Positions 23,812 to 25,293 of a DNA stretch of 41,768 nucleotides are shown here, piece after piece. Source of the DNA: a virus; the IMG/VR virus record IMGVR_UViG_3300029303_000014, one strand, 5' to 3'. Numbering within the stretch: the stretch's first letter is position 1; every line of letters begins with the position of its first letter. Position numbers and translations under genes: made by a program. The notes below the pieces were generated by a model. It was not told the origin of the DNA and did no database searches. It saw only the letters and a program-made list of their open reading frames with translations.

Positions 23812-23832
23812 TTAGTCGGTGCTCTCTTTTTT
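23794..23832. terminator. Bidirectional terminator: perfect 16-bp stem with a GATT loop
   Basis: AAAGAGAGCACCGACT-GATT-AGTCGGTGCTCTCTTT followed by a T-run. The stop codons of both convergent genes lie in or next to the loop. Confidence 0.85.
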
Positions 23833-24402
23833 GACTTCGCTTTGCTTTGATTTCGTCCCGCTCCGGCGCTTGGCGTCCGCGCGATGCTGGACCTCTTTTC
23901 GGTGGGCTGCGGCGCACTCAGGGGAGCAGGTAACGGTGGGGGTGCCGGGGACTATCTCCCGGCCACAGACGACACAGACCTTAACGCCGCTGCGGGATTT
24001 TTCGTGGCGTTTTATGTAGTAATCGTGTACGGCGTTCCAGCTTTTTGACTGCGCACGGTCGATTTCACGGACGGCATCCGGGGCGCATTTTGGACAATAC
24101 TTTTGCAATCCAGATTGGACGACATACTCTCCACCGCAGATCACGCAGTTATCGATATCTCCCAGATGCCGGGAAAAACCGGTGGCCCGGTACTTTTGTT
24201 TCCTGACCTTCTCCCGCTCTGCCCGGCAGGTTAGGCAGTAACTGGCTCTGGGCCCTCCGATGAAGTTGGCCCCGCAGGTGTGGCAGGTTCGCGTGCGCAG
24301 GGTGGTCGACCGGGATGCGGCAAGGCAGTCATCGCACTTCGCCTGCTCTGCGCGATCGGTGGAAAAAATCTTGCCGCAGGTGATACATTTTTTAGTCCGC
24401 AT
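23812..24402 (-). CDS. Protein with four CxxC...CxxC zinc-ribbon repeats (196 aa)
   Basis: Internal ATG 24402 with an AAAGGAG RBS. The longer track ORF overlaps the upstream HTH gene. Four CxxC pairs are spaced regularly. Confidence 0.7.
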   Translation of the reverse strand: MRTKKCITCGKIFSTDRAEQAKCDDCLAASRSTTLRTRTCHTCGANFIGGPRASYCLTCRAEREKVRKQKYRATGFSRHLGDIDNCVICGGEYVVQSGLQKYCPKCAPDAVREIDRAQSKSWNAVHDYYIKRHEKSRSGVKVCVVCGREIVPGTPTVTCSPECAAAHRKEVQHRADAKRRSGTKSKQSEVKKESTD

Positions 24403-24422
24403 ACACAGTCTCCTTTGCCGCG

Positions 24423-24704
24423 TTATAACAAAAATTTTGCATCTACGACCAGCGCGTCGGCGATGGCAAGCAGGTTTTTGGCGGTCAGGTTGCCCGCCTC
24501 CGCCTCCCCCAGCTCCACGCGCTGGATCTGGCGGATATTGACGCCGGACTTCTTGGCAAGCTCGGACTGAGTCATGTCCGCCATGCGGCGCGACCACTCC
24601 AGCTTGGTGATCGGGCGGTTATGGCAGTCTCGCCCGTAATTGACCAGCGAGCAGGCGGTGCAGTCGCCGTCCTCTCGCTGGCAGTCGCTGTACTTTCGTC
24701 TCAT
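24423..24704 (-). CDS. XRE-family HTH regulator with an N-terminal 4-Cys cluster (93 aa)
   Basis: ATG 24704. C-x7-C-x2-C-x9-C is followed by MTQSELAKKSGVNIRQIQRVELGE (HTH_3). Confidence 0.8.
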   Translation of the reverse strand: MRRKYSDCQREDGDCTACSLVNYGRDCHNRPITKLEWSRRMADMTQSELAKKSGVNIRQIQRVELGEAEAGNLTAKNLLAIADALVVDAKFLL

Positions 24705-24718
24705 AGCCGCCACTTCCT

Positions 24719-24937
24719 TTAAAGGAGATCGTAGCCGACGAGAGGGAAACTGCCGTATTCGTCCGGCTCCTGCCCATACACGGGACGGAGGCGGCAGCCC
24801 TCGTCGATGTCCCATTCCTCACCGTTCCAGCAGTCGTCGCCGTACTGCTGAAGCCATTCGCCGAGAGCGGAGAGATTTTCGTCGGTGGGGTTCTTAATGG
24901 CCGCCTCGCGGAGTTCTTCATATTTGTATTCGTTCAT
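24719..24937 (-). CDS. Small highly acidic protein (72 aa; 18 D/E vs 5 K/R)
   Basis: ATG 24937 with a GGAGGAAGAAC RBS. Residue counts done by hand. Confidence 0.7.
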   Translation of the reverse strand: MNEYKYEELREAAIKNPTDENLSALGEWLQQYGDDCWNGEEWDIDEGCRLRPVYGQEPDEYGSFPLVGYDLL

Positions 24938-24959
24938 GATGTTCTTCCTCCTGTAAGTT

Positions 24960-25220
24960 TTATAGATTGAGCATGGACGCTCCGCCATTGCGGGCGTCGA
25001 CAATGTTGGTGATCTCCTCATAGCAGGCCGTGGGGTCCGGCTCGCCGCCCTCCCAGCCGTCGGCGATGGGGTCTCCGCCCGCCTTGAGCGCGTCCAGCGT
25101 CCCAACGACCAGAGCGCGGTCCGCGTCGCAGAGGTAGTAGATGAAGGAGCCGTTCTCGTCCATGACAGCGAGGTGAAGGCGGCCGGCATTGTCTTCATAA
25201 ATGCTGTAATTGTACTTCAT
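24960..25220 (-). CDS. Small highly acidic protein (86 aa; 15 D/E vs 5 K/R)
   Basis: GGGAGGAAATAGAA RBS. First gene after the consensus promoter. Confidence 0.7.
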   Translation of the reverse strand: MKYNYSIYEDNAGRLHLAVMDENGSFIYYLCDADRALVVGTLDALKAGGDPIADGWEGGEPDPTACYEEITNIVDARNGGASMLNL

Positions 25221-25264
25221 TTCTATTTCCTCCCGAGGTGTTTCCCTCTCTTGTTTACATGTTT

Positions 25265-25293
25265 ATTATACGCTAATATTAGCGTATTGTCAA
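25265..25293 (-). promoter_or_regulatory. Consensus sigma-70 promoter TTGACA-17-TATAAT with a 20-bp perfect palindrome (25268-25287) filling the spacer
   Basis: The minus strand reads TTGACAATACGCTAATATTAGCGTATAAT. The palindrome is ATACGCTAATATTAGCGTAT. Confidence 0.8.

Follow-up and report, generated by a model that had tools for sequence, protein, structure and literature searches.

The four-gene operon considered here (g1, g2, g3 and g4, in order of transcription) lies on the minus strand of the IMG/VR virus record IMGVR_UViG_3300029303_000014, a stretch of 41,768 nucleotides that is referred to below as the window. The window is a temperate tailed phage of the Oscillospiraceae type, with gut, Flavonifractor-like hosts. 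At the level of architecture the operon is an Aca-like, very probably autoregulated cassette that follows the logic of Aca/acr loci, and its anchor, the helix-turn-helix (HTH) regulator g3, bears an undescribed module of four cysteines (Cys4). On sequence comparison and predicted structures, of which the whole analysis consists, the promoter, its operator and g3 are a stable unit and the genes before g3 are exchangeable cargo. A fuller reading, to which we give about an even chance, makes the locus an accessory cassette that represses itself in a temperate phage, its cargo proteins being likeliest inhibitors of host proteins, with counter-defence as the leading candidate. What is newest is the Cys4 module, together with the set of cargo families to which the anchor leads.

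Comparison of related loci shows conservation of this unit, exchange of its cargo and co-variation of the operator with the recognition helix of g3. The loci were gathered through g1 (45 viral) and through g3 (80 viral and 17 genomic); the counts are non-independent, taking in kindred phages from a single large gut data set, and the genes were called by a simple rule of open reading frame (ORF) plus Shine-Dalgarno sequence, with overlapping spurious ORFs dropped by eye. A TTGAC-type promoter with an embedded palindrome was found 256-991 bp upstream of g3 in 127 of the 130 loci with a g3 homologue, and two of the three exceptions are truncated by contig ends. The 127 loci comprise 94 distinct cassette sequences and 17 gene orders, in which the interval between promoter and g3 is occupied by one to three genes from at least 15 cargo families. 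These families are mutually unrelated by hhalign (highest probability 13%). Most of the cargo proteins are small, and about seven families, which fill most of the loci, have a net charge of -10 or lower. The g1-g2 pair is the most frequent content, in 33 loci, ahead of a 108-aa protein with a net charge of -17, in 30 loci, and of g1 by itself, in 21. At least 37 loci have nothing in the slot behind g3; g4 fills it in 38 loci and a 217-aa Cys-rich protein in 23, and elsewhere it holds other zinc-ribbon proteins. The genes flanking the cassette are 80-98% identical although the cargo changes.

Since promoter, operator and g3 are conserved while the contents vary, g3 with its operator is regarded as the anchor, and g1, g2 and g4 as cargo. 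Furthermore, g1 behaves as a mobile gene: in several viral loci (L022-L027) it was found next to an integrase and under a different promoter, with neither g3 nor the palindrome present. An original prediction made from the letters of the window had presented g2 and g4 as parts of the operon, but by the comparison they do not belong to its core: g2 is optional, being present in about a quarter of the loci (33/127) and always after g1, and g4, a basic protein, is one of several alternatives for its slot.

The same prediction had pointed to a perfect TTGACA-17-TATAAT promoter with a 20-bp perfect palindrome filling its spacer, and here it was right (Table 1). This promoter is the sole one of its kind in the window, where about 0.015 perfect TTGACA-N16-18-TATAAT sequences are expected, and the palindrome was found to overlap the -10 element as well. 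A palindrome with a 10-bp arm is common enough per se (12 of 200 shuffles reach that arm length), and the weight of this one therefore lies in its position and in its conservation in related loci. Its 14-bp core has a single occurrence in the window. All four genes are preceded by Shine-Dalgarno sequences, and g1, g2 and g3 follow one promoter with short intergenic gaps.

Table 1. Features of the cassette and its immediate surroundings, with positions in the window (aa, amino acids; pI, isoelectric point).
Feature	Position	Strand	Description
Promoter, sigma-70 type	-35 25293-25288; -10 25270-25265	-	TTGACA, 17-nt spacer, TATAAT; 12/12 match
Operator, 20-bp perfect palindrome	25268-25287		ATACGCTAATATTAGCGTAT; fills spacer, overlaps -10
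Operator, conserved core	25271-25284		CGCTAATATTAGCG; between -35 and -10
g1	24960-25220	-	86 aa; 15 D/E vs 5 K/R; pI 4.05; acidic cargo
g2	24719-24937	-	72 aa; 18 D/E vs 5 K/R; pI 4.05; acidic cargo
g3	24423-24704	-	93 aa; Cys4 module (residues ~5-30, C8/C15/C18/C27) and five-helix XRE/Cro-type HTH (34-93)
g4	23812-24402	-	196 aa; basic, pI 9.4; 16 Cys in four zinc-ribbon-like Cys4 units; slot behind g3
Hairpin	23794-23829		16-bp stem, 4-nt loop; junction of g4 and convergent 91-aa gene
Sigma-70 region 4-only protein	23536-23811	+	91 aa; convergent with g4; Sigma70_r4_2, E=1e-5
Direct repeats	25325-25368		3-4 copies of AWWWTGCC(C/G)(G/T)C at 11-bp spacing; upstream of the cassette -35, before the divergent plus-strand operon; membership in the cassette not proven

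The HTH domain of g3, which had been recognised as XRE-type from the sequence, matches Pfam HTH_3 (PF01381; E=2e-7), its score of 31.4 bits being above the cut-off of 23. In the AlphaFold2 model of g3 (pLDDT 91) this five-helix domain superposes on C.AhdI, C.BclI, CapH, 434 Cro, SinR and P22 c2, all of them dimeric proteins that bind operators, with a root-mean-square deviation of 1.2-1.7 A over about 60 residues for C.AhdI, 434 Cro and SinR. Its best relatives in the PDB are HipB, HigA, C proteins and 434 Cro, with AcrIIA15 reached only at E=0.1, and none of the Aca proteins held in the PDB was among its best 60 sequence or best 50 fold matches.

The operator varies together with the predicted recognition helix of this domain. 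Operators with the core of the window pair with the helix RQIQRVE[LM]G (about 90 loci), CGCCAATATTGGCG operators with R[QR]IQKVESG (13 loci), GGCTAATATTAGCC operators with RQIRRVEMG, and both CGCCTAAATAGGCG and CGCCAATACCGGCG operators with RLVQK[IV]EGG. Symmetric changes in the two half-sites are what is expected of a dimeric repressor, and the co-variation of half-site and helix supports the view that a g3 dimer would bind the palindrome and autorepress the operon. Such a dimer would cover both the spacer and the -10 element. The repression itself we infer from the position of the palindrome, the co-variation and the fold.

A regulatory cycle can be proposed on this basis. The consensus sigma-70 promoter, as read from its sequence, would drive g1, g2, g3 and g4 strongly while g3 protein is absent, and a g3 dimer on the palindrome would then block RNA polymerase and set up negative feedback. 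By analogy, infection of a g3-free cell would lead to a burst of cargo that is subsequently limited, as has been described for Aca proteins (PMC9410906) and AcrIIA1 (bioRxiv 10.1101/787200), and in a lysogen the cargo would be held low. The Cys4 module may add a signal input. The weakest step, argued from Aca/acr operons and AcrIIA1, is that the cargo would inhibit host proteins, with counter-defence as the first candidate. The cargo proteins are read as inhibitors because they are small, often very acidic, mutually unrelated and swapped at one constant position. We likewise infer the targets of g1, g2 and g4.

In all tested Aca families an inverted repeat inside the core promoter, with repression by the HTH protein, has been reported (PMC9410906). 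The cassette shares with the acr operons of Aca1-Aca13 (PMC9410906; PMC6765145; PMC8633003) a strong core promoter with an internal inverted repeat, small cargo placed first with the HTH gene downstream in the same operon (the order in the 127 loci), an HTH gene that is the conserved anchor while the cargo varies between related elements, and the proposed burst of expression followed by shut-off. It differs from them in that none of its cargo is a known Acr by comparison with solved Acr structures, Pfam and PHROG, that g3 does not detectably belong to any Aca family with a solved structure, that the Aca and other HTH structures brought up by PDB searches lack the Cys4 module, and that an extra slot with zinc-ribbon proteins lies behind the HTH gene. 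A promoter inverted repeat and repression by an HTH protein are also reported for AcrIIA1 of Listeria prophages (bioRxiv 10.1101/787200). That locus (bioRxiv 10.1101/787200; PMC5758886) is alike in its temperate phage and Firmicutes host, in the conserved palindrome between the -35 and -10 elements of the acr promoter, and in autorepression by an HTH fused to a second domain while the partner genes vary. However, the HTH of AcrIIA1 is N-terminal and its second domain is the anti-Cas9 part, whereas the HTH of g3 is C-terminal and its extra part is the 28-residue Cys4 unit; no sequence relation between the two proteins was found.

The acidity of the first two gene products is as originally described (Table 1), and so is their position outside nameable families, neither g1 nor g2 having a match in Pfam, PHROGs, NCBIfam, PADLOC or PDB sequences. 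The g1 family comprises 51 clusters, every one of metagenomic or phage origin, with 12 invariant residues and the conserved motifs EDNAGxLHLA and GGDPIADGWEGGE; the database record identical to the g1 protein is a Caudoviricetes hypothetical protein. Its AlphaFold2 model (pLDDT 95) has a beta3-alpha2-beta fold, that is, three strands, two helices and a fourth strand. Foldseek found nothing significant for this model in the PDB (best E=0.4) and a weak match only in BFVD, to an uncharacterised Citrobacter phage protein (E=3e-3). A search for resemblance to DNA mimics of the Ocr/ArdA type had been suggested, but in spite of the pI of 4.05 there was no Pfam match for g1 or g2, and neither Ocr nor ArdA was among the Foldseek matches of the g1 model. 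Three other cargo families likewise had no relative among PDB sequences, one match to a designed repeat protein being disregarded, and for ten further cargo proteins compared with the family libraries the sole match was ParB-N-like, in one 120-aa acidic protein. Common descent of the acidic cargo through the motif W-[DN]-G-[DE]-[DE] was rejected, hhalign giving g1 and g2 a probability of 2%.

For g4, the prediction of four CxxC...CxxC zinc ribbons was correct as to its 196 residues, 16 cysteines and four units, although the fourth unit is CxxC...CxxxC. Its zinc-ribbon part matches phrog_1271 (E=8e-10), and matches in Pfam, PHROGs and NCBIfam were of the zinc-ribbon type only; in PADLOC-DB 2.0, g1, g2 and g4 are all unmatched, and the models hit (RmrA, CapH and control-protein models) concern the HTH domain of g3 alone. 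In its middle, g4 is similar to small zinc-ribbon proteins from early regions of Paenibacillus, Blautia and Flavonifractor phages. The labels 'TnpX recombinase' and 'HNH endonuclease' carried by some relatives were not taken as the function of g4, because their bearers are small zinc-ribbon proteins of a size unfit for these names. As a separate observation, several cargo or neighbour proteins (L030 3617-3967, the upstream gene of L042 and L022 1936-2559) have in common a motif G-x-T-Y-x2-K-x2-L-K-x2-G-x-W-x4-K-x-W, which gives weak DUF5710 matches (E about 0.05-0.1) and is fused to a DnaJ-like region in the L022 protein.

The named relative nearest to the window is Flavonifractor phage Cormatin (L003, ON453905), a cultured prophage. 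Its cassette (3841-5190) has the same promoter with the operator TTGACAATACGCCAATATTAGCGTATAAT, a second copy of which lies 31 bp upstream, followed in order by a 115-aa cargo gene, an HTH gene with a different N-terminal domain and a g4-like zinc-ribbon gene.

Several points weigh against a cassette of host-protein inhibitors. The anti-defence operon of the original prediction holds as an architecture of Aca type, given the 127 of 130 loci, the differing cargo and the operator/helix co-variation; however, searches of Pfam, PHROGs, NCBIfam, PADLOC and PDB sequences linked no cargo protein to any known family of anti-defence, Acr or Ard proteins, and function is argued by analogy only. The counts behind the co-variation are phylogenetically non-independent and represent only about four to five separate changes. 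The proteins found behind g3, g4 included, are basic zinc-ribbon proteins and atypical as inhibitors. The interval between lysis genes and integrase is the usual site of lysogenic-conversion genes too. In Cormatin, moreover, the operator is present twice and the cassette faces the operon of the replication initiator, and the module may act there as a general switch.

The cassette could instead be expressed by the prophage for the benefit of the lysogen, through superinfection exclusion, defence or another conversion function, with g3 steadying its expression. It is indeed located between endolysin and integrase, on the strand opposite the late genes and behind its own constitutive-type promoter; autorepression leading to stable low expression would fit a prophage gene, and the slot behind g3 often holds a zinc-ribbon protein of nucleic-acid-binding type. 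PADLOC nevertheless matched nothing beyond the HTH domain, neither g1 nor g2 has an enzymatic or effector domain in Pfam, PHROGs or NCBIfam (g4 being of the zinc-ribbon type only), and the swapping of many unrelated tiny acidic proteins is a pattern of inhibitors, not of defence effectors. We regard a benefit to the lysogen as unlikely. Temperate phages are known to encode small acidic antirepressors governed by a repressor of their own (P22 Arc/Mnt/Ant, Gifsy phages), and the operon might be an antirepressor module like P22 immI, in which the acidic proteins bind a CI-type repressor while g3, perhaps via Cys4, times their release and so controls induction. The Cys4 module could be a sensor, and the CI/Cro-type operator of the phage, TTCGTAATATTACGAA (32143-32158), shares a TAATATTA core with the operator of the cassette. 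What makes it distinctly unlikely is that the cargo is uncoupled from the immunity region: five cargo sets occur among phages with an integrase 95-97% and a Cro-like protein 89-100% identical to those of the window; near-identical g1-g2 cassettes sit beside CI-like genes only 31-35% identical to that of the window, or with none in range; and the same cargo (c70) is found with integrase-to-cro intervals sharing 15-60% of their sequence only. In addition, the operator is not a LexA box and is present in a single copy in the window.

A toxin-antitoxin pair in reverse order, of the MqsRA/HigBA type, would place a toxin upstream and make g3 its Cys-containing XRE antitoxin and autorepressor. The cargo gene does come first and the HTH gene second, the closest PDB sequences include the antitoxins HipB and HigA, and some Cys4-module proteins bear ribbon-helix-helix or Xre domains of antitoxin type. 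MqsA-type antitoxins (TIGR03830, CxxCG_CxxCG_HTH), of which the N-terminal Cys4 module and XRE HTH are reminiscent, also have a metal-type Cys4 module in this position, a gene downstream of that of the partner and a palindromic operator in the promoter. However, the Cys module of g3 has 28 residues and another spacing than the approximately 65-residue zinc domain of MqsA; TIGR03830 does not match g3 and matches only six of 135 Cys4-module proteins. The upstream genes, moreover, are neither of the MqsR/RelE type nor constant: they belong to 15 or more unrelated families, are mostly strongly acidic and often number two or three in one cassette, and g1 has no RelE, MqsR or other toxin fold and no toxin family match. 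A toxin-antitoxin system is accordingly very improbable. Structurally, the HTH of g3 is matched best by C proteins of restriction-modification systems (C.AhdI, C.BclI, C.Esp1396I; E about 1e-3, TM-score 0.6-0.8 on the target), which, as g3 would, bind as dimers to palindromic boxes in their own promoter, timing downstream genes. They are without a Cys module, and a role as restriction-modification controller was rejected, there being no endonuclease or methyltransferase gene in 22.8-26.3 kb, in or beside the cassette, or in related cassettes.

The Cys4 module at the N-terminus of g3 was an unexpected finding. A cysteine cluster had been noted there with the spacing x7/x2/x9, which is corrected here to C8-x6-C15-x2-C18-x8-C27, in a module of 28 residues with the consensus YCTQNDGDCxTCSLVNYGRDCxNNP. 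An exhaustive search with the first 36 residues of g3 recovered at least 188 clusters (50% identity, E<=1e-3) and was the informative one, a word-index search with a stand-alone Cys4 protein giving six close relatives only. These proteins have 46-165 aa and carry K-x-Y-C-T-Q-N-D-G-D-C-x-T-C-S-L-V-N-Y-G-R-D-C-x-N-N-P at either end; the four cysteines are invariant in 135 aligned representatives. Their range extends from gut Clostridia phages to a Methanosarcina virus, and in scans of genome bins residues 8-32 of g3 alone were matched in Desulfobacterota, Planctomycetota and Spirochaetales. An XRE HTH accompanies the module in 16 of the 135 and a ribbon-helix-helix domain in about 10, while most members have no other known domain. 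The HTH domain of Cormatin, on the other hand, is 75% identical to that of g3 but has a different N-terminal domain of about 100 residues. As the partners vary and the Cormatin HTH bears another N-terminus, the module is viewed as an exchangeable add-on to a DNA-binding domain.

Models of Pfam, NCBIfam and PHROG matched the partner domains and none covered the Cys4 module; no PDB chain aligned to it in a fold search with the g3 model, and a full-text literature search for the motif found no paper. Conservation as a DNA or RNA element was rejected: the same residues mostly use different codons, with differences mainly at third positions, and selection is thus concluded to act on the protein sequence. 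Because the four cysteines are invariant, the module probably binds metal. WhiB-like (Wbl) proteins of actinobacteria and actinophages are also small, common in phages and involved in transcription control, and also have four invariant cysteines, although their Cys spacing is different and they are not known to share sequence similarity with the module. Wbl proteins bind a 4Fe-4S cluster and sigma region 4. A tentative and rather doubtful proposal is that the module represents an undescribed domain in the viruses and mobile elements of anaerobes, either a metal-binding sensor or a domain that binds a partner, which might hold an oxygen-labile iron-sulfur cluster. It would couple small accessory or counter-defence cassettes to redox, metal state or a conserved host factor as a counterpart of the WhiB-type actinophage regulators, and the g3 family would then also mark 15 or more new protein families as candidate inhibitors of host proteins.

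The Methanosarcina virus MetMV (L146) encodes a 73-aa member. In MetMV and in viral contigs of 55-61 kb, the Cys4 gene closes, or nearly closes, a short series of small uncharacterised genes and points in the direction opposite to its neighbours. It lies between packaging genes and a primase-helicase gene in MetMV; in L230 and L231 it has the packaging genes on one side and DNA methyltransferase genes on the other. The stand-alone Cys4 proteins of these three (67-73 aa) have a second conserved stretch, C-terminal, of ILxIPPEGIAGLxRGxIMDIHxxAKLxPGExYED.

The structural genes of the window are on the plus strand and are followed by an M15 endolysin gene (22866-23474), the minus-strand cassette and a plus-strand block of uncharacterised phage genes; the integrase gene on the other side of the cassette is at 29142-30170, with the gene for the CI-like protein (30890-31258) and Erf and NinB homologues farther along. 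Genome bins that carry the cassette belong for the most part to Oscillospiraceae and other Clostridia. The hairpin between g4 and the convergent 91-aa gene, proposed earlier to be a 16-bp bidirectional terminator, has a strong stem (free energy -28.5 kcal/mol on the minus and -30.8 kcal/mol on the plus strand; z -7.4 and -5.8), but its U-tract is good on the plus strand only (UUUUUU, against UUUCU on the operon strand), and a simple terminator scan did not include it among its predictions. It is likely a terminator for both directions. Its arms are the coding ends of the two genes, and both proteins end in KESTD, an ending that is also seen, in other loci, on a 63-aa protein that occupies the slot behind g3 instead of g4. 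At the other end of the cassette, the 5' untranslated region (25221-25264) has a short hairpin beside the ribosome-binding site (GAGGGAAACACCTC in the window), which recurs in the same place in L004-L044 with paired changes, e.g. GAGGGGAACACCCC, and could affect translation or mRNA stability. Rfam gave nothing above threshold in 23.0-26.0 kb.

The 91-aa sigma-region-4-like gene adjoins the cassette in nearly all loci compared. The direct repeats upstream of the cassette cluster nowhere else in the window, and their type co-varies with the predicted DNA-reading helix of the 91-aa protein: SVDGLAK[LI]RRRAY alleles pair with TGCCC-type repeats, and SPEAVNRCRRRAY alleles with TTTGGTCA repeats. The 91-aa protein is therefore a probable binder of the repeats, and together they look like a second local regulator, maybe an activator of the divergent plus-strand operon. 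The promoter of that operon apparently consists of a -10 element alone (TACGAT). Its ORF listed from a TTG at 25345 likely starts at an ATG near 25408, after AAGGAGG, and would give a 40-aa protein. In the same region (25345-27379), the product of the following gene (phrog_3754, 132 aa) resembles a small cysteine peptidase in its Cys...His...Asp pattern, and a 267-aa protein (phrog_16490) has the C-terminal end CGCGCNQGCGC. Elsewhere in the window, the intergenic CI/Cro-type switch (32100-32200) contains, besides the palindrome mentioned above, a partial second copy of it; the central sequence held in common with the cassette operator is flanked here by CG, not GC. A small XRE-type gene (1666-1914 region) has at its end an A/T palindrome (1870-1889) whose arms measure 10 bp, and is followed by the perfect 18-bp palindrome ACTCACTTATAAGTGAGT with 9-bp arms (1897-1914).

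New anti-defence proteins are discovered mainly through anchor genes of the Aca type, and the anchor family described here is large, with 1222 clusters at 90% identity. The Cys4 module is short, very strongly conserved, covered by no library model and joined to two classes of DNA-binding domain across bacterial and archaeal viruses. F. plautii, the host of Cormatin, belongs to the OMM12 mouse consortium (PMC10197239); with a related cassette in Cormatin and its host in this consortium experiments are therefore possible, and the Cormatin cassette could be an experimental model. The g3 family is common in phages of human-gut Oscillospiraceae, where very few counter-defence genes are known, and its anchor exposes at least 15 unrelated families of small cargo proteins that are open to testing.

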